NCBI GenBank assembly: GCA_963575745.1
Contig: CAUYUJ010000248.1
Location: 186,001 to 250,000 of the forward strand
DNA length: 64,000 nt
Source of the DNA: Prorocentrum cordatum
Lineage: Eukaryota
Direction: 5' to 3'
In this document: positions 2,979-52,132 of the stretch, in pieces
Layout: every line of letters begins with the position of its first letter
Numbering within the stretch: the stretch's first letter is position 1
Position numbers and translations under genes: made by a program
Notes under the pieces: model-generated
Database searches by the model: none
What the model was told of the DNA's origin: nothing
The model's input: the letters and a program-made list of their open reading frames with translations, nothing else

Positions 2979-4386
2979 CAGCTCTAGCAGATGATTGACC
3001 ATGGCCATGCGCACGCCAGTGGGCCGCCTCCACCTGCGCTTAGGGCTGAGGCTGCTCTGCTTGTCAACTGAATTATGCCAGACGTGCGCTGCTGCGGTTT
3101 TCTGCTTAGGACCAGCGGCGAGGACCATGAGCCAAGAGTCTAGCACGTTACAAACTGCAGAACAAGCCGGATCCCGAGTCCCCAGCTCTAGTTGCAGCAA
3201 CGTGTCCAGGCATCTACCTCGCACGCGAGGTGATACTAGCTTCCCCAGAGACCTGCGCCACACAAAAAGGTTGGAAAGGGTGTATCTAAACACCTTGGCG
3301 CTGAACTCGACTCTGGGGATCACACCTCGGCGGACGATGGTCGACCCTCCTGGTCTGGCCTTACGTCCACAACTGGCAATGGCTGCCGTTCTCCTGACCT
3401 GCCTGACTGAAAATCTGCCTAGCCTGCGCATTGGGTCTAGCAGCTGCTACCTGGCCTCTGTCTAGCCAAGGTCTGGAGCGGTGACGCGGGGCTTCGAAGG
3501 GATGCCAGCTCGCTTGAGCTTCCGAACAACGTCGAGCAGCATTCCTTTCGTCATTGCCGATGATGCTGGATTTGTTCGAAATTCGACGGCCCTCGATAGC
3601 GCAGGCATCAGCAAAGTTCTTGCCTGCTCCCACCAGGCCTTCAACAATGGTACTGCGATGGCCCTGGATGCGGTTGTTGATATCGGCAACCCATGACGAC
3701 ACCTCGACGGATCTGTACCGACTAGAAATGGTTTCCTACATGTCGTACAACCCTACTCTGCCGAAGTCCACCCCCCTTTCCTCGCCTCCGCCACTATACT
3801 GATAAATGGCAGGACGGGAAGAGTGTGCGCCCTCCGCTCATGCAGCAGCCAGGGCGCGAGGTACAGGAGATATTCCAACAACAGGGCGCGCGCAGGCAGA
3901 CCGAGCTGGAGTCCTTTCTCTATCGCGTGATCCACATGGAGAGTGTCGTAAAATTCTAAACGGTCCCAGAGTACCGAAGCTGTTTTCACGTCAACGAGGG
4001 GTCGGGTTCTCAAAGCACAGCTTCGTCAGAAAAAGTTCGAAGCCACACACTTCTCAGGGCACCGTTTCCTGCGACTGCCGCATCCCACACCCCAGCGGCT
4101 TGCTGGGCCCATTCCGAGGTGTAGTGAGAACGGATGAAGGCCCACAGGCAGACGCCACGGGGGCCGAACATCGCAGACCAAAGTCGAGTCGAGTCGAGAA
4201 TGCGCATGCGAATCTGTACTCGAGTCGAGACAATGTCGAATTGTCTCATAAAAGAATGCTTTCCCAATGCGGTGCTTGCGAATTGAGACGTCGCTGGGCT
4301 GGGCAGTCTGAACGAGCGAGGAGGTCCGTCGTGATCTCGGCATACAACCATTTGAGAGTCGATCATTTCGAACACTGGGTCGGCAT

Positions 4387-6294: not shown

Positions 6295-6468
6295 AGGAGG
6301 ACGAGGAGGAGCAGGAGGAAGAGGAGGAAGAGGAGGAGGAGGAGGAGGAGGAGGAGGAGGAGGGTGGAGGGCGGAGGGCGGAGGGCGGAGGGCGGAGGGC
6401 GGAGGGCGGAGGGAGGAGGAGGAGGAGGAGGAGGAGGAGGAGGAGGAGGAGGAGGAGGAGGAGGAGGA
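6295..6468. repeat. (GGA)n with GGCGGAG heptamer repeats
   Basis: Direct reading. Confidence 0.95.
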
Positions 6469-7502
6469 GCCGCCGCGCGCCGCCTCCCGAGGCCCCCATC
6501 AGAGCAGGGCCGGTCGGGGCACGTCGCTCCGAGTGCGGGGCGGTATGCGCAGCACGCTCTTCTCTCGGGCTCCAGCGCCGCATCGATGACGCTTGAGAGT
6601 GACCCTTCGCCGGAGTGACCTTGGGTGCTGCGGGCTAATCTGGGTCCCCCCCGATCGCTGATGAGCGCGACGCGATAGCGGCGGTCGGCGCGCCTGGATT
6701 TGGCCACGTTGCGCCCCCTCCGTCCGCGCACCAAAGCTCACTCTTACCCAGGGTCTTGCGCGTAGTCGACCGCATGAGAAGCTCGACGGACGGGCGTTTT
6801 CGCCCCGACTTCGGCCCTTGGGGCCCTCACAGATCGATCGGGGTCGAACGGATGCCGCGGGACAACGAGGCCGGTGGCTAAGGGAAGCTCGGTCGCGGTG
6901 CAGCATTGGGCTTCAGCATGTGAGAAGCGCTCCGAAGTGACAGCTCGGGAGCCCTCCACTTGGCGGTCGATCAATGCGTTCAACGCAGGGCTCGTGCGAG
7001 AGTCGTCTGAAGACGGGGTGGTTCGCATCAGCAGTCTCTTTCCCTGTGGGATCGGATGATGTACGCCTTTCGGGCCCAGGAGACTCAGATGCTCTGCTCT
7101 CGTCCTGTGGAAACGCGGGTAGTCGGCATCGGCATAAGCAGGATTTGGCTGCAAGTGGCATTTCGGCCACTAAACGCGATCATACGTGGGGGAATCGGAG
7201 GGAGATTCCATTTCCAGCGAGAAGGACGCACGCAGTGGTCACCGGCTTGGTCACCGCAGTCGTGGTCACTGGTACGCTTGCCTAAAAGCCCCTGGCGCCA
7301 GCGAGCTTGCCCAGACCTCCCTGCAGGACGCGGAGCCACACTGGCTCGCCCAGCAGCTGCTGGGGATCAAGGCCTCCGAGCACCGCTTCTCGACAGCCTG
7401 GACAGCACTGGGGCTCGCAGCCGCCACGGATGACGCCAGCGGCCCGCCTCGGCGCTGGCGCTGGGCCACGACCCTGCGCGCCCACGCCGCCATCGACCCG
7501 CC

Positions 7503-10500
7503 ATGCGCCCAGATGCCCTCCACCGCCGCGCTCCCCGCGGCGCGCGGGCCGCGGCGGCCGGCGGAGCGGAACTACCAGAGGTCGCCCGGGCCGCGCGGTT
7601 GCGGTCCTTGGGCCGGCAGCTGCGGGGAGCTCGCGGGCCCGGCGCTGGGGCGGCGAGACCTGGACACATCCCGTGCCCCAGGCCTGGCCTGGCCCGTCCT
7701 GGGCCCAGCAGCGGTGGTAGACGCCCTCCTGGCATGGCCAGGGTCCAGGCTTGGCCAGGCCTGGGGCAGTGGATGCGTTGTGGTCTCGTCGCCCGAGGTG
7801 CTGTCGCCGGGCTCGTGCGCGAGCACCTCATCGAGCTGGCGGGGGCGCCGCCGCTCGCGGTGGTGGCGCTGCACAGGCTGGCCGCGCTGTCCCGCCCCGC
7901 GCCCGGGCGGCGCCTCGAGGCGGGAGCCTCGGGGACGGCGGCGAGCCTCGCCGACCTCCTCGGGAGCCCCGAGGCGTTGCCCCCGAAGCAGTGGGCGCAG
8001 CTGCTCTGGGCCCTGGCGCGGCTGTCGCGGCCGCTGCCGCCAGGGGCCGTTGCTGCCGCCGCCGCTCGGGCGCCGCAGCTGGTGCCCCAGAATGTCGCCA
8101 ACGTGCTCTGGGCCTTCGCGACGGCTCGCGTGGGCAGCGAGGGGGCCGCGCCCCTCGCCGCCGAGGTGCGCCGCCGCGCCGTGGAGCTCGCCCCGGAGGA
8201 GCTCGCGGCTGCGGCGTGGGCCGTGTCGCGGCTGACCATGCCTGACTCTAGGCCTCCCAGATGGGGTCCGAGCAGATGGGGTCGGAGGAGCGCGCCGTAT
8301 CGCCGACACGTCGGCGATGCGGCTCGATGTGGGCCCCGAGTTTCTCCACGCCGACGGCGCCGATGCATCGCCGACGTCGCCGATGCATCGCCGATGTATC
8401 GGCAATGCGGCGCGATCCTCCGACCCCATCTACTCGGACCTTATCCGGGAGGCCTCCACTGACACGAGCGCTGGCGAGGGCGCGCTTTCGGTGCTGACCC
8501 AGGAGGCTCTGCGCAGGGGTTGGGAGGGATTCGGCACGCAGTCGATCAGCAACGTGCTGTGGGCCGTGGGCGCGCGCGGCCCCTGCGCGGCGCCCTGGAT
8601 GGAGGCCCTGGGTCAGGGGCTGGCTGGCGGTCGGCACGGCCGCGCTGTCGCGGGTGGCCACCGGTGGGAGGAGTTCGGGACCCACGAGCTCTGCAGCATT
8701 GTCTGGGCGTTCGCCACAGCAGCAGTCGACGGAGCGCCACTATTGGCGCCCATCGTGCGCGAGCTGCCCCGGCGCCAGCTGGGCAGCTTCCATGCCCAGG
8801 AGGTCGCGGGCCTGCTTTGGGCGCTGTCGGCGCTGCGCCAGAGCGCTTGGCAAGCACTGGAGGCCGCGGGCGTGCAGCGCGCGCCCGAGCTCGCGCCCCA
8901 GAGCCTCGCCAGTATCGCCTGGGCGGCGGCGACGGCCAGAGCCTCTGCGGCGCCAGGGGGCACCGCGGGACCGCTGCTGCAGGCGGTCTCCGCCGAAGCG
9001 GTGCGGAGGGGGATGGCGGAGTGGACCGTGCGGAGCGTGGTCAACACGGTCTGGGCCGTGGCCGCGGCCTCCGCACGCGACGTGCCTGGGCTCGTGGGCG
9101 CCGCTCTCGAGGCGTTGCGGGCCGCCCGAGAGGACGAGCTGTGGACTGCGAGGCACATACCCAGCGTGGCTTGGGCCTTGGCAGTGTTGCCCGCGCGGGA
9201 CGCCGAGCTCCTGGTCACCTGTGGGGAGGCGGCCATGGTGCGGGCTCCGGAGCTGCAGCTGCGGGGGCTGGCCAACGTCGCGTGGTCGCGCGCGGCGCTG
9301 AGGCTGCCAGACGAGGCCCTCGCGCGCGCGCTGGCACGCAGCGCCCTCGGTCGGCTGGCGGCGGAGCTGCCAGCTGCGCTGGCTGCTGCGGAGGTGCCTG
9401 GCGCGGCGCCGATTCTGGCGGTGTCCCTCGCTGAGATCACGTGGTCCTTCTGCACCCTGCGCTTCGATTTCGGCGTCCCAGGGGCTGCTCGCGAGGCGCT
9501 GTTGGCGCTCGGCCAGCGCATGGACGCGGCGGCCGCGCCGGTGTGCGGCCCGGCGCTCGCACTCGGTAGCCCCGCAGAGTGGCCTCTGGGCGCGGGAAGT
9601 GAGCCCAAGGTGGTGCGGCAGGGGCCTGGCTGGTGCGTGCTGCTGAAGCCGCCCGGCTGGGAGGTCGACACCAGCGAGACGGACCGCGCCCTGACGCTGC
9701 GGCGCGGGCGGCGGCCGCTCTCCGCCTTCCTCCGCAGAGTCTCCGGGGCCGCACCTCTGAGCGGCCGGCGGGACCTGGACTTCGGCTTCCTGCACCGCCT
9801 GGACACGCCCTCCTCAGGCCTCATCGTCGCAGCGCTGTCGTTCGAGGCCCTGTTTCATCTCCGCTGGGTGGTCGCCACTCACGGGATGTCGCGGGACTAC
9901 CTGGTGCTCTGCCACGGTGCTGTGGCTGACCCGGGACTCCGCTTGGATTTCCCGGTGCGCGTGGACGGCGCCGGGCCCAGCGTGGTGGCTGACGACGGGC
10001 AGCCAGCCCTCACCCACGTTCGCCTGCTCGGCCATTTCGGCCCGCCAGTCGCGCTGGCAGACGGGCCCAGCTTAGCCTCGTACTCGCTGTGCGTCTGCTC
10101 GATCGAGACAGGGCGCCGCCACCAGATACGGGCGCACATGACCCACGCGGGCCATCCCCTGGTCTGCGACGGGCGCTACGCGCTGGAGCGGCTGCACGAG
10201 GACCAGCGGCTGTGCCCCCGCAACTTCCCGGGTGTTGCCAGGGGCCCTGGCCCAGTTGGTGCCCCCATGATTGCTGTGGCAGGCCCAGATGGCTGCCAGG
10301 AGCACCCCTCACGGGGCCCAGAGGGCCCCAGGGGGGCTCCAACCTGGCGCGAAGCGCTTGGGGATTTCGGCACAAGTGCCAAAACCAGAAGATCAGCCCA
10401 GCACGAAACACCACATCGAATCCACGGGAAATCCGAAGGCCACCCTCGCGCGTCCACCACGCGATCGTCGTCGACACAAGCATCGAAACCATCGGGCCTG

Positions 10501-10908
10501 GGACACCGCTGGCAGCCCCCGAGCTTCCTGCACCGCTTCCGCCTGCACTGGGACGCCGCGGGCACCGTCGAGGGCCCGCTGCCGCGCGACCTGCGCGCCG
10601 CGCTGGCGGCGCTGAGGCCCGCGGACGCACGGGCCGCGGCGGCGGTTCGTGGCATCCTGAGCGGCGCGCTGCCGCGCGGCGCCGGCCCCGCGGGATGCGG
10701 CGCGCTGGGCGGGGAGCCTCATTTGCGGCGGAGCGCCGCCGCAGATCGCGACGACGGAAACGGGTCCTCCGGGTCACCCCAGGGGCGCGAAGATCATCGC
10801 GCTTCGCGCAGTCCAGCTTGGCTTGGAGAGGCGCCCTTCTCCAGAACGCCAGCGCGGGGGCGCGAAGATAACCGCGCGTCGCGGGGCGCGATGCGCGAAG
10901 TTAGGTGA
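7503..10908 (+). CDS. OPR/HPR-like helical-repeat protein fused to an RluA-family pseudouridine synthase (~910 aa after removing three insertions; termini uncertain)
   Basis: About ten W-containing repeats (PQNVANVLWAFAT, TQSISNVLWAVG, THELCSIVWAFAT, AQEVAGLLWALSAL, PQSLASIAWAAAT, LRGLANVAWSRAAL). Then RluA motifs LLKPPGW, GFLHRLDTPSSG (catalytic Asp 9802-9804), RDYLVLCHG, TGRRHQIRAHM..GHPLVCDGRY and, after removing an insert, CPRNFLHRFRL. Joined segments: 7503-7641, 7798-8251, 8469-10223, 10524-10908. Confidence 0.9.
7642..7797 (+). mobile_element. Introner-like inverted-repeat element forming a 156-bp GC-AG intron
   Basis: IR gggcggcgagacc/ggtctcgtcgccc plus inner catcc..tgccccaggcctggcc arms; flanking direct repeat ggcgctg/ggtgctg; GC at 7642 and AG|G at 7796-7797. 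Splicing gives RGPGAVAGL. Confidence 0.8.
8247..8463 (+). mobile_element. MITE/Introner-like element, 217 bp, 5-bp direct repeat CTGAC
   Basis: ~55-bp imperfect TIRs (aggcctcccagatggggtccgag.. / ..ctcggaccttatccgggaggcct); ctgac at 8242-8246 and 8459-8463. Removal joins the two reading frames. Candidate intron AG|GC 8252 to AG 8468, also 217 bp. Confidence 0.85.
10224..10523 (+). mobile_element. 300-bp in-frame TIR insertion splitting the RluA C-terminal motif
   Basis: cttcc at 10224-10228 and 10524-10528; imperfect ~30-bp TIR cgggtgttgccag../..ctggcagcccccg; ends cccgag. Removal gives PRNFLHR. Confidence 0.85.
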
Positions 10909-11124: not shown

Positions 11125-11585
11125 GCCTCCTCATCGCCGTGCTCCTCGTCCTCCTCCCTGCTTTGCCCCCCACCCTCCTCCTGTTAGTCGTCACCCCCCT
11201 CCCCCTCCTGCTCCTCCTGCTGATCCTCCTCCTCATCCTCCTCCTCGGTCCTCGGTCCTCCTCCTCCTCCTCATCCTCATCCGTCTCCTCCTCCTCTTCC
11301 TTCTCCTCCTCCTCCTCCTCCTCCTCCTCCTCCTCCTCCTCCTCCTCCTCCTCTCCCTCGTCTTTCTCCTCCTCCTCCTTCCTCCTCTCCTCCTCCTCCT
11401 CCTCCTCCTCCGCCTCCTCCTCCTCTTCCTCCTCCTCCTCCTCTCCTTCCTCCCTCCCTCCTCCCTCCTCCTCCCTCCTCCCTCCTCCCTCCTCCTCCTC
11501 CCTCCTCCCTTCTCCTCCTTCCTTTTCCTCCTCCTCCTCCTTCATCCTCCTCCTCCTCCTCCTCCTCCTCCTCCTCCTCCTCCTC
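11125..11585. repeat. (CCT)n low-complexity tract
   Basis: Direct reading. Confidence 0.95.
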
Positions 11586-11879: not shown

Positions 11880-12790
11880 ATATTAACAGACCCACGTTGG
11901 AACCCAAGTCTGTGGGGGGGGGGAGTGAGAGGGGGCGGGCCTTGTTGAGGAGGCGGCGGGGCTTCTCAGAAGCCCTGGGCGCCTTCTGAGAAGCGTGAAG
12001 CGTCTCCAGGGAAGGCTCAGGAAGACTTTGCGGGCGGCGGTAGGCTTCCCCAGCCTTTTGAGGAGGTCCGCTCCTTCTCACTTCCCCCCTGGTCTCGCCG
12101 CCGAAGTGAGGAGGGGGCAAACATACGTTCCTGCGAAAGACGGGGGTGATTTCAGCCCATGGCCCTCACATCCTGGCCGTCGTGGTGATAAAGAACGCGA
12201 TGAATAATGTGTTTGCCTCGCGGTCTCCTTCGCTTCACGTTCTTCTCATGTTGCGTCACTGAGGGGGGACGAGAAGCGCAACGACAACGTCCAGCTCCTG
12301 TTCGAGTTGTTGGTGGTCGAGTTCCTCAGCTCAGAGCAAGTGGTCGAGGCCGTCGCGGCCCCCCCCCCGTCGGAAAATGGGTGCGGAAGCAGAAACAGCA
12401 GAAGTGTATGTGCAAGAGGGTTTGCGCCGCCGCGTGGAGCATCTCAAGCTGGCCGGTCGCCCTATCAGGACCAGATGCCATCAGTGTCTTCTTCTAGGTC
12501 GCCTGCAGGAGCGCAAATGTCAACGCGCTTCGCGGAGTTTGCCGTGGAGCCGTAAAGTTGATATTCTGCAGGAGGCGGCCTGAGAGCGCGAAGGTTGGGT
12601 GGCCTGGCTTCTTGGAGGAGGCCTACAGCCAGCTGGATCCAACATGACTCATTGCGGGGGAGGGCGTATCCCGTTGAATCGAGGAGGGGATGGCGAGCGC
12701 TGGCAGCACTCTACCAGCGTAAGAAGCCATCTCGTCCACCATTAGCGAAGGGCGATACCTCACATGTGGATCGTTGGGCGCCGCTCGATA
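11880..12790 (+). pseudogene. Possible decayed tyrosine-recombinase (DIRS-like) fragment
   Basis: SWRRPTASW...RRGWRALAALYQRKK resembles the C-terminal SLRRGGA...RGRW....RY pattern of tyrosine recombinases; heavily broken. Confidence 0.3.
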
Positions 12791-49520: not shown

Positions 49521-52132
49521 CAAGTTTCGAAACGCACTCAAGTTTAAGATACAAATCAGTGCAACAGCCATTACGAGTCATCGAAACACCCCTCACCCCT
49601 TATCGAAACACCATCGTAGCTTGCACGGATTTCCATCCTAAACTTCAACGCGGGAAGCTCTTTGTGATCCTTGTTTTCCCGAAGACGGCTGCGCAACTGC
49701 ATGCGTCCTGCCGCCCCTGATTCACCGACTCCCCTGCTGATCGTTTCTGGATGGGCTGGTGGGGATACTTTTTTAGTCAGCGGCCGCGGGCGAGCGCGCC
49801 AGCGGCGAGTCCAGTCAAAGCGGGGCACGCAGCGACGAATTAACCGAAGGCGACGGAGGGTGGCCACACCTACAGCGGCAAACCGAGCCCTCACGCAGCA
49901 GCCCAGCGGCGGACCGGCGGGTGGGGGGGCAGCTGAAACTGAGTCGTATTGCCAGCGTGCAAGTATGCAAAGCGTCGGGGCTCCAGGGACTCGGGACACA
50001 CGACGACCCGGGCCAGAAGCCGAAATTAATGCAAGGACGCAGCCCCGGACAACTGCGTGAGTACCAGGGTGGCCCGAAGGACCGCCGGTCGAAGAATTAA
50101 AGCCAGGAGGCGAGAGCGTTGGCGCAGTCAACCATGCCGTCAGCAGGCACAGGAGGGGCCCGAGGACTCCCTTCACGGCACTTCGGCCAACGAAGACTGC
50201 CGCAAGGGAGGGTCCAGGCGTGCCTCCGCCTTTTTACATCGCTTGCACCGCTTACACCAGCCAACCAATACCTCATATTCCTCCCCCATTCTTCCATCCG
50301 CCCCTGTCCCTCCCCTCCCCACTCCCTCCACGTATCCTCCCCATCCCCTCTTCCCTCCCATCCCCTCGCCTCCCCCCACCTCCCCCTCCCGAGCCAGCGC
50401 GCGGGACAGGGCGGACGTCGAGCGGGTGTCGACCGAGAGCGCGCAGCAGAAGCCGGACTTCGCCAGCGTGAGGGCAGCGCGTTCGCGACATGACCCGCCC
50501 GATGCGGCGCCGAGCTGGAGGAGGAGGAGGAGGAGGAGGAGGAGGAGGAGGAGGAGGAGGAAGGGGGAGGAGAGGAAGGGGGAAGGAGGGTCAGAAGGGA
50601 GGCGGAGGAGGCAGAGGGGGAGAAGGAGGGGGACGATGAACGGGAGGAAGGAGGAGCTGGAGCTGGAGGATGCGGAACCATCGTACGGCTCGCTCTACAG
50701 TGTTAGATCTGGCGTTGTATGGCTGGTGCGCGTGCAGATCTTGCATCGAAACTGACCCTGATTGGGGTGCGTCGGTGCAGGTGAGAAGTAGTGTCCAACG
50801 ATAGTGCAAGCCGTAACCAGATCTGAAATACTCCAGTTCCTAAGAACTGTTTCGCTGTGGGCGCTTCTGTCAGCAGAGGTAGTCCAGGGTCTATGTCACG
50901 GCCCCGCCAGGGGATCACTACTGGCACGTCCGCCTCGTCTCGGGCTTGTGCCCCTGCTTCGCTGTCGTCCCCCATATCCCTGGCCCCGATTCGTCCTCCT
51001 AATCGACCTCCTCCCTTTTCACCTCTTCCACAAGTTTCTCAACACGCAAACTTCTCTCATCTCTCCCCTGACGCTGTCTTTGGTTTCTCCGCCTATCTCG
51101 TAGACTGATTGCTCACACAGAATTGCCCCGAGCTTGTTTTCCATATTGTTCTTTCCCATCAGAACGCTCTCGGCCCTTCAGACATGATGTTCCCGCTGCA
51201 GCGTTGGCTGCATTTCAGGATTGGTGCGTTGCTGCCGTCGTTCGTATGTTTCGGTTTCGCCCCAGCGCGGACCACGTTTCCAGTCCGTTTCGTTCCTCGT
51301 CGTCGTCGTCCCCTCTCTTTTCCCTCCGCCTTCCATTGGCTCCCATGCGTCTCCTACTTGTCCTGCTCCTTCTGGTCCTCCCCATTCCTCATAATCCTGC
51401 TCTTCCTCCTTTTCATTATCCTGCTCATCCGACCCCCCCTCCGTAGCACAGCGTAAAAAGACCCCCCTTTCTGATCGTGTATCACACGATGGGGCCACTG
51501 TGGGGACTCCGGGTCATTTGGGCCACTTCAACAAGACTTAAACGCAGAGTCAGATCCACAAGGCAACGCGCGGGCCGGCACAACAGCCAGACTCACACTA
51601 AAGCCAGTTTAAGGTGGGTGTGTGTGGCGGGGGGGGGGGAGGCCAGGCTACCAGGGGATCCACGCAAGTCAGATCGCATAATTCTGATAGCATCTAGAGG
51701 ATACGGAGTGGACGAAGAAGGAGGAGCGACCGAGAAGGGGGGGCAGGAGGGGGAGGAGCGAGGAGCAAGACCAGGGCCGCCGGCCGTGAAGGCAGGCGAG
51801 CCTATCTTGGAGGGCGCCACCCGCCACGGCGGCCGCCTTTTGTTGCTGCTGCGCCCCCCGCTGCAGCACCAGAGGTGCTGCCAGGGGCGCCGCGGCCACG
51901 GGCGAGACGTCGCAGCCCGAGCGGCGCCAATTGGCAGCACCAGAGGTGCCGCCAGTGGGCGCGTGCGGCGCGTGCGGCCGAGTTGTGGGGGCTGGTGGGC
52001 ATCCTGGCTGCCCGTCCGCTGCGCCTGCTGCCTCGCCCGCGCCCGATGTTTCGCTTCAGGCTGCCGTGACCAGCGCTCCTCTTCCTCATACCTATTATTC
52101 CTCATCCTGCTCTTCCTCATCCATTCCTTTTC

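Follow-up and report, generated by a model that had tools for sequence, protein, structure and literature searches.

Why would an RluA-family pseudouridine synthase carry a long helical-repeat array ahead of its catalytic domain? The question is raised by a gene of the dinoflagellate Prorocentrum cordatum that lies in a 64,000-nucleotide stretch of contig CAUYUJ010000248.1 (the window; all coordinates given here are positions within it). On the forward strand, positions 7824-10720 encode a protein whose N-terminal part is an array of 11 repeats and whose C-terminal part is the synthase. We propose that the array directs pseudouridylation of organellar RNA and, taking this as the whole explanation, put its probability at about 0.6. 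A preliminary description of the locus had reported roughly ten OPR- or HPR-like repeats upstream of an RluA domain with four intact motifs, all within a single protein. Each of these points was borne out: we count 11 tryptophan-anchored units, supported by a unit model and by profile matches, all four motifs were located, and repeats and synthase lie together in one exon.

Repeats and synthase in one chain

Two overlapping open reading frames (ORFs) cover the region on the forward strand, at 8317-10908 (863 amino acids) and at 7503-8462 (319 amino acids). The database protein closest to the longer ORF is P0001 (827 amino acids, 94% identity across 70% of the query), which is labeled "unnamed protein product [Prorocentrum cordatum]" and, in UniRef, [quoted passage not shown] A tblastn comparison identified P0001 as the public gene model of the same locus. 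The ends of that model are doubtful (exons 3840-3926, 12262-12354, and 50407-50490), as might be expected if the fusion were an annotation artefact in which two adjacent genes had been misread as one. However, a single open frame at 8452-10233, with a coding-type G+C content at third codon positions (GC3) of 0.86, covers repeats 4-11 and continues into the synthase through its GRRHQIR motif. The transcript assemblies of relatives carry the fused ORF too: it is present in homologues on intron-free contigs of 2.1-4.6 kb and in Trinity and MMETSP transcripts. Because one uninterrupted exon holds repeats 4-11 together with two thirds of the synthase, we consider it extremely improbable that the fusion is a product of the gene model.

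Each of the 11 repeats is anchored on the tryptophan of an xxLW[AS]xA motif. Three of the tryptophan codons lie in the upstream exon (8007, 8109, and 8217) and eight in the exon shared with the synthase (8560, 8704, 8818, 8920, 9052, 9172, 9283, and 9442). Repeats of this class are tandem helical hairpins of about 37-38 amino acids with the core P-Q-x-L-[AS]-N-x-x-W-A-x-A-x-L. The window protein fits this description, degenerately; the asparagine at position 8, for example, is present in 4 of its 11 units. A 37-residue hidden Markov model (HMM) of the unit, trained on 44 regularly spaced units from ten homologues, detected eight units in ORF 8317-10908 (best E-value 2.7e-11) and two in ORF 7503-8462 (best 5e-11).

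Solved structures were searched with a profile of ten fused homologues. The array matched RESC6 (8fn4_6, 8.5e-31), the Chlamydomonas mitoribosomal protein mL115 (7pkt_O, 8.5e-20), RESC8 (5.6e-17), Toxoplasma mitoribosomal proteins named "RAP domain-containing" (9e-12 to 3e-7), and FASTKD4 (9gek, 4.3e-5). Since this profile matches RESC6 and mL115, the repeats stand above chance. Judged by sequence and modeled fold, the array belongs to the HPR/OPR/FASTK class (Pfam RESC6, PF26188; FAST_1, PF06743). FAST_1 itself had no match on the window ORFs or P0001 (Pfam, E ≤ 0.1-1), and two relatives scored above its cut-off of 27.4 bits (P0004, 28.4 bits; P0010, 51.8 bits); the local Pfam copy returned zero PF26188 matches for any protein. 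Pfam found no PPR or DYW domain on the window protein and no RAP domain on it or on the scanned fused homologues, in which the synthase sits in the position of RAP.

Structure prediction gave a consistent picture. The model of P0001 was built from 10 aligned sequences, with a predicted local distance difference test score (pLDDT) of 67 and a predicted template modeling score (pTM) of 0.61. It consists of helix pairs over residues 6-467, a low-confidence linker at 470-488, and then a mixed alpha/beta domain. The top Foldseek matches were RESC6 (8fni_6, 1.5e-9), RESC8, the Toxoplasma chain 9i05_Xj, and mitoribosomal OPR proteins of Polytomella and Chlamydomonas, with RluD and RluC lower down (RluD 11wx_B, E = 7.6e-4). 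A second structural aligner gave Z-scores of 19.7 for RESC6 (8fni_6), 19.0 for mL115 (7pkt_O), and 18.9 for Toxoplasma 9i05_Xj; scores for RESC6, mL115, and Toxoplasma HPR fall at 17-20, compared with about 11-13 for generic ARM/importin solenoids.

The orthologue P0002 (846 amino acids, 46% identity, encoded on an intron-free 3.3-kb contig) is the fully supported sister of P0001 in a FastTree phylogeny. Its model, from 41 aligned sequences, reached a pLDDT of 83.7 and a pTM of 0.80, with the array at residues 107-559, the linker at 560-584, and the synthase at 585-835 (pLDDT 90-98). The P0002 synthase matched RluD 11wx_C (E = 1.4e-9, template modeling [TM] score 0.79, root-mean-square deviation [rmsd] 3.5) and RluA 2i82 (TM 0.80, rmsd 2.7), as well as RluC, RPUSD1, and RPUSD4, and its array again matched RESC6 and mitoribosomal proteins. 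In both models the linker is predicted to be flexible (pLDDT below 50-61). The models indicate that the N-terminus is, as the preliminary description had anticipated, an alpha-solenoid of the OPR/HPR/RESC6 class, nearest to RESC6 and the OPR/HPR mitoribosomal proteins.

The synthase domain matches PF00849 (PseudoU_synth_2) at residues 441-610 of the 863-residue ORF (E = 1.9e-16; 61.1 bits against a cut-off of 26.8). All the conserved RluA motifs (KPxG, R..Y, GRxHQIR, and FLH) are present, with KPPGW at 9646-9660, HRLD, which includes the catalytic aspartate, at 9793-9804, GRRHQIR at 10111-10131, and FLHR at 10525-10536 (all on the forward strand). In the ten-homologue profile search, the synthase matched RluD 11wx (8.6e-32), RluC 1xpi (8.4e-29), and the RluD structures 1prz, 7bl5, 1v9f, and 1qyu (3.7e-27 to 7.3e-27).

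NCBIfam placed the protein at the level of the RluA subfamily only, with all scores well under the bacterial equivalog cut-offs. The best equivalog scores were 37.7-56.9 bits against cut-offs of 328-378, the RluA equivalog scored 23.7 against 286, and TIGR00005 scored 69.6 against 192.7. Because these scores are so far below the cut-offs, we name no bacterial orthologue and transfer no site specificity from one. TIGR00005 aligned only from profile position 81-120 onward. The first 80-120 positions, left unmatched, are presumably the place of the S4 domain in RluC and RluD; Pfam found no S4 domain on the window ORFs or on the relatives scanned.

Across the family, the catalytic residues do not vary. 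All 107 synthase domains covering the motifs have in common the lysine of KPPGW, the arginine and aspartate of HRLD, the tyrosine, both arginines of GRxHQIR, and the aspartate that follows. Thirteen domains lack a literal HRLD and read HR[IV]D or xRLD; we rejected the notion that some members are dead enzymes, as these 13 retain both the arginine and the aspartate. Within HRLD, the aspartate is catalytic and the arginine flips the uridine, according to 10.1101/2023.02.23.529727. Because this flipping arginine and this catalytic aspartate are invariant in all 107 domains, their conservation points to selection on catalysis, for chemistry beyond mere binding. The synthase is active-looking and is predicted to isomerize uridine.

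This conservation bears on a rival explanation, in which the protein is a mitoribosome assembly factor or structural subunit that serves as an RNA chaperone or as a scaffold for rRNA fragments, pseudouridylation being dispensable as in Trypanosoma brucei mt-LAF3. The closest solved relatives of the array are mitoribosomal proteins and RESC subunits, which would suit such a role, and the family profile also matches mt-LAF3 itself (6yxx_EC; 7.4e-6 by sequence profile, 9.1e-6 by Foldseek). Like the window protein, mt-LAF3 is a mitochondrial RluA-family protein, if ours is indeed mitochondrial, and it is bound to large-subunit rRNA in assembly intermediates (6yxx_EC, 7aoi_XP); its catalysis is dispensable, D211A being not essential (10.1101/2023.02.23.529727). 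However, mt-LAF3 has no array and a degenerate HNLD, and RPUSD3 has RASG, whereas HRLD is complete in the window protein and the flipping arginine and catalytic aspartate are invariant in its family, which suggests selection for chemistry. We regard an assembly factor or structural subunit as quite unlikely.

A dinoflagellate family with divergent arrays

The synthase part of P0001 had 25 matches, among proteins of 454-1448 amino acids, and the organisms named (Prorocentrum, Polarella, Symbiodinium, and Durusdinium) are all dinoflagellates. Precomputed Pfam annotation placed PF26188 on 11 of these proteins and PPR_2 on 6. Further relatives are known from Breviolum (symbB) and Effrenium, and at least three members among the matches (P0001, P0005, and P0009) belong to P. 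cordatum. As the preliminary description suspected, dinoflagellate annotations already list homologues by plain rlu names: database names include "rluD," "rluC," "ylyB," and "Ribosomal large subunit pseudouridine synthase C." Recognition of the family corrects the names "rluC" and "rluD," which carry over bacterial rRNA-site functions.

A profile search of 1.84 billion representative sequences returned 68,416 matches at E ≤ 1e-3, of which 3,454 reached E ≤ 1e-30; the top 150 all exceeded 383 bits. We took a local HMM census of 221 collected proteins, drawn from the top matches only. The synthase was found in 119 of the 221; 82 of these 119 have at least three repeat units (range, 3-13), and 23 have PPR arrays instead of HPR-like repeats. 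In an earlier set of 167 proteins, the array was N-terminal in 114 of 114 proteins that matched both region HMMs, a count that takes in PPR-type members because the region HMM used for it spans the linker too. When 20 clusters were looked up, only dinoflagellate names were returned (Polarella, Symbiodinium, and Yihiella); the other clusters were MMETSP, Trinity, Logan, or JGI contigs of 2.1-4.6 kb, which is mRNA-sized for the whole fused ORF. The ESM Atlas, whose output names PF26188 as RESC6, holds clusters of 139, 150, 51, and 114 members that are automatically named [quoted passage not shown] and one cluster of 59 members with PPR and PF00849. One Perkinsozoa and one Bacillariophyta record occur in related ESM Atlas clusters; we judged these too thin to count as a distribution outside dinoflagellates.

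The preliminary description had asked whether the specificity positions of the repeats vary while the catalytic domain is conserved; for the arrays as a whole, this is the pattern found. Mean pairwise identity is 0.27 in the array and 0.44 in the synthase (45 pairs); between P0001 and P0002, the values are 0.43 and 0.66. By this comparison, the arrays diverge faster than the enzyme.

The size of the family invites the alternative that the targets are nuclear-encoded RNAs (mRNA, spliced-leader RNA, or cytosolic rRNA), modified as part of dinoflagellate post-transcriptional control and not in organelles. With 82 HPR-type and 23 PPR-type clusters among the top matches only, the family is very large, arguably beyond the needs of tiny organelle transcriptomes, and some members have no obvious presequence. 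On the other hand, many relatives have basic N-termini with few acidic residues, as judged by eye and by simple counting, and the characterized relatives of the array that we found are all mitochondrial or plastidial (PMC6212722, PMC5737537). Nuclear-encoded targets strike us as highly unlikely.

Proteins in which a PPR array precedes the RluA-type synthase are P0006, P0011, P0019, P0020, P0022, P0023, P0026, P0027, P0098-P0100, P0103, P0109, P0117, P0121, P0125, P0131, P0137, P0138, P0140, P0145, P0147, and P0159. The strongest PPR array among them is that of P0098 (PPR_2, E = 5.5e-73), and P0011 has a RESC6-like match and a PPR match together. In a quick FastTree phylogeny of 107 synthase domains, which is midpoint-drawn, effectively unrooted, and weakly resolved, the PPR-type members are nested among the HPR-type members, and well-supported branches force at least four changes of reader type. 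Because the nucleotide recognition code of PPR arrays is known, the PPR-type members would be the easiest in which to test directed pseudouridylation.

Arrays of the same kind also occur with other partners. Six eukaryotic transcripts (P0192, P0198, P0202, P0206, P0212, and P0215) join the array to an MTS methyltransferase domain (E = 1e-10 to 1e-30), and P0176 and P0181 join it to an FAD monooxygenase domain (FAD_binding_3). P0191 combines the array with four RRMs and has a sub-threshold match to the AID/APOBEC-like NAD1 family (E = 7.8e-4; 20 bits against a cut-off of 27). RAP domains are a further partner, preceded by such arrays in green algae, diatoms, and haptophytes.

Weighing the proposed array-directed pseudouridylation

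The mechanism that we propose begins with a nuclear P. cordatum gene whose product, of about 830-900 amino acids, would comprise a solenoid of some 470 residues built from 11 hairpin repeats, a short flexible linker, and an RluA-family synthase. The array would stand in the place of the S4 domain of bacterial RluC and RluD as the substrate-recognition module. Its ligand would be a specific segment or fragment terminus in an organellar RNA, with one of the fragmented mitochondrial rRNAs as the likeliest candidate and plastid minicircle transcripts as a less likely one. Once bound, the array would hold the synthase beside a nearby uridine, which the arginine of HRLD would flip out and the aspartate of HRLD would isomerize. 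The proposal starts from the fusion, the two folds as modeled, the intact catalytic residues, and an architecture found throughout the family; from these we infer that the array binds RNA, that the protein is organellar, which RNA it targets, and that the array sets specificity. Programmed pseudouridylation, as the preliminary description had it, is a plausible reading.

The organellar case, and that for fragmented mitochondrial rRNA especially, is made by association, through the solved relatives of the array and through work on HPR proteins and FASTKD2. All the solved array relatives that we found by profile search, Foldseek, and the second aligner are mitochondrial proteins. HPR proteins bind mitochondrial RNA and are expanded in lineages whose mitochondrial rRNA is fragmented (PMC6212722), and the Toxoplasma mitoribosome includes HPR and RAP proteins (PMC11652630). 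Human FASTKD2 forms a module with RPUSD3, RPUSD4, and TRUB2 that acts on 16S rRNA, and it has been proposed as the specificity determinant of this module (PMC5737537).

Several points weigh against array-directed pseudouridylation. The repeats of the window protein are irregularly spaced (34-53 amino acids), its array is alanine-rich (24-27%), and the exon-B part of that array is near-neutral (isoelectric point 6.0); to judge by this composition and spacing, the array is unlike a clean base-reading solenoid. An HMM search of the kind first suggested for this locus succeeded for the synthase, with its PF00849 match, and failed for the array, as Pfam matched no repeat family to the ORFs of the window itself at E ≤ 1. 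Structural subunits that do not handle RNA share the fold, with Polytomella ATP-synthase ASA2 and related chains among the matches. To our knowledge, no RNA-recognition code is established for HPR, OPR, or FASTK repeats. The 5′ end of the gene is placed tentatively, by tblastn and GC3, which makes any targeting peptide conjectural. Finally, the dispensability of D211 in mt-LAF3, a mitochondrial protein of the RluA type, offers a precedent for an organellar synthase whose chemistry is not essential (10.1101/2023.02.23.529727).

Some of the same points bear on a stricter version of the idea, in which every nucleotide of the target would be read by one repeat, through a few specificity residues, and modification would fall at a constant distance from the bound sequence, making the protein a true pseudouridine counterpart of PPR-DYW. 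In its favor, PPR arrays, with their known code, substitute for the HPR-like array in the 23 members mentioned above, and the swap of array type has occurred more than once on the synthase tree. The last helix of the array bears an LGxxxD motif that is invariant across the ten-sequence alignment (A1; G461 and D465 in P0001), and this cap helix, just ahead of the linker, could fix the register. Near-complete units, 221 of them drawn from 72 proteins, have a rigid scaffold (W, 98%; F1, 75%; Q4, 79%; L6, 79%; N8, 74%; A14, 86%) around positions 2, 5, and 15, which, like the inter-helix loop, are variable and mostly polar. However, HPR, OPR, and FASTK repeats have no known code, the units of the window protein are degenerate and uneven, and the linker is predicted to be flexible. 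The irregular spacing and near-neutral array appear to argue against a strict modular register in the window protein, and we consider one-nucleotide-per-repeat reading unlikely.

A broader conjecture, unlikely in our estimation, is that dinoflagellates hold protein-only, sequence-addressed pseudouridine writers, in which an HPR-like or PPR array would bind a defined sequence and the RluA domain would convert a nearby uridine in a register fixed by the invariant cap helix. If this were true, organellar pseudouridine maps together with the dozens of paralogues could yield the code of HPR, OPR, and FASTK repeats, and the PPR-type members could be re-aimed by means of the known PPR code.

Array-directed pseudouridylation has precedents in design. 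PPR-DYW, PPR-SMR, and FASTK-RAP proteins are known combinations of reader and effector, and pseudouridine synthases with small RNA-binding add-ons (S4) are also known. As in PPR-DYW proteins, an N-terminal helical-repeat reader and a C-terminal base-modifying enzyme share one polypeptide, and a large family pairs variable arrays with a conserved catalytic domain. Unlike in those proteins, the enzyme is an RluA synthase instead of a DYW cytidine deaminase and the repeats of the window protein are of the HPR/OPR/FASTK class, and the likeness is one of analogy only; it is made concrete by the sister proteins that bear true PPR arrays before the same synthase.

Another comparison is the human module of FASTKD2 with RPUSD4, RPUSD3, and TRUB2, in which the same array class (FAST_1/RESC6-like) is functionally tied to RluA-type mitochondrial synthases (PMC5737537). 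There, reader and enzymes are separate and the reader ends in RAP, whereas here one chain has the synthase in the place of RAP. As a "Rosetta-stone" fusion, the window protein supports an idea put forward for human FASTKD2 and RPUSD4, namely that mitochondrial pseudouridine synthases are directed by FASTK-like proteins. Bacterial RluD and RluC provide the nearest solved catalytic domains (fold TM 0.76-0.79), with identical motifs, but have an S4 domain of about 70 amino acids where the window protein has a solenoid of about 470. The mitoribosomal HPR, OPR, and RAP proteins of Toxoplasma (9i05, 9g6k), Chlamydomonas (7pkt), and Polytomella (8a22) and the trypanosome proteins RESC6 and RESC8 bind organellar RNA or guide RNA and resemble the window protein in repeat motif and solenoid fold. 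In contrast to it, they have no enzyme domain, or have RAP, and none is fused to a pseudouridine synthase.

Fusions of an HPR/OPR/FAST array or a PPR array to a pseudouridine synthase are undescribed in the full-text literature searched, which lay outside subscription journals. The Breviolum homologue P0004 (symbB.v1.2.005779) is absent from the list of HPR proteins in Table S4 of PMC6212722. The architecture appears new as a combination; the proteins are already public under automatic names, and the design of reader plus effector is a known one, not a new category. The enzyme would mark RNA beside the binding site and so offers a route to reading out the binding of HPR and OPR arrays, and the relatives that join PPR to the synthase suggest that pseudouridine might be placed at chosen sites by protein alone.

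Gene structure and flanking sequence

Besides its three distant small exons, the public model P0001 has exons from 7824 onward, at 8455-10398, and at 10417-10755 (tblastn). Both ends of the model are without counterpart in P0002, and the outer exons imply very long introns (the last of about 38 kb), which makes them doubtful. Within the gene, two stretches are missing from homologues and have GC3 values of 0.58 and 0.60, compared with 0.86-0.94 in the exons. We read both as introns for these two reasons, so that each call depends on homology and GC3.

The exon for repeats 1-3 lies at 7824-8243 (forward strand, as are all parts of the gene), in the frame of ORF 7503-8462, and is supported by tblastn with P0001 and P0002, by the unit HMM (E = 5e-11), and by a GC3 of 0.94. 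Its 5′ limit is that of the P0001 model, and its 3′ limit is set by a frame-compatible GA donor. The putative intron 1 (8244-8451, GA...AG; GC3 0.58) is indicated by a change of frame between its flanking exons and has no counterpart in P0002; it holds short tandem repeats at 8258-8401 with periods of 11, 15, and 20 nucleotides. Repeats 4-11, the last cap helix with LGxxxD, and the linker follow at 8452-9594 (tryptophan codons 8560-9442; eight unit-HMM matches), and the first part of the synthase, which gives the PF00849 match, continues in the same exon and frame at 9595-10233.

The putative intron 2 (10234-10515, GT...AG, 282 nucleotides) is in frame and stop-free, with a GC3 of 0.60 against 0.86-0.93 in the flanking exons, and no homologue in the ten-sequence alignment has an insert at this site. 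Alternative junctions are the GC...AG of the public model at 10523 and a non-canonical pair. All three junction pairs preserve the frame, and only the non-canonical one restores the CPRNFLHR of the family. Each end of the intron (region 10200-10540) carries a copy of a short direct repeat, CTTCC. The end of the synthase, with FLHR, and the C-terminal helices occupy 10516-10720, where GC3 is 0.93; it drops after about 10720, and the open frame continues to a stop at 10908, so the 3′ end is tentative.

At the 5′ side, the preliminary description had started the gene at 7503, which does not hold: the ATG there is probably not the true start, because its frame has a high GC3 only from about 7780 and another frame is coding-like over about 7275-7575. 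That other frame belongs to ORF 7186-8235 (GC3 0.80-0.94 over about 7275-7575) and marks an uncertain candidate for an extra 5′ exon at about 7275-7600 on the forward strand. Homology to it was found neither among the family members nor with the repeat-unit HMM; it may be an unrecognized 5′ exon, a small independent gene, or the result of a frame shift. Trinucleotide tracts flank the gene, with about 56 copies of (AGG)n at 6295-6469 and about 125 copies of (CCT)n at 11198-11585.

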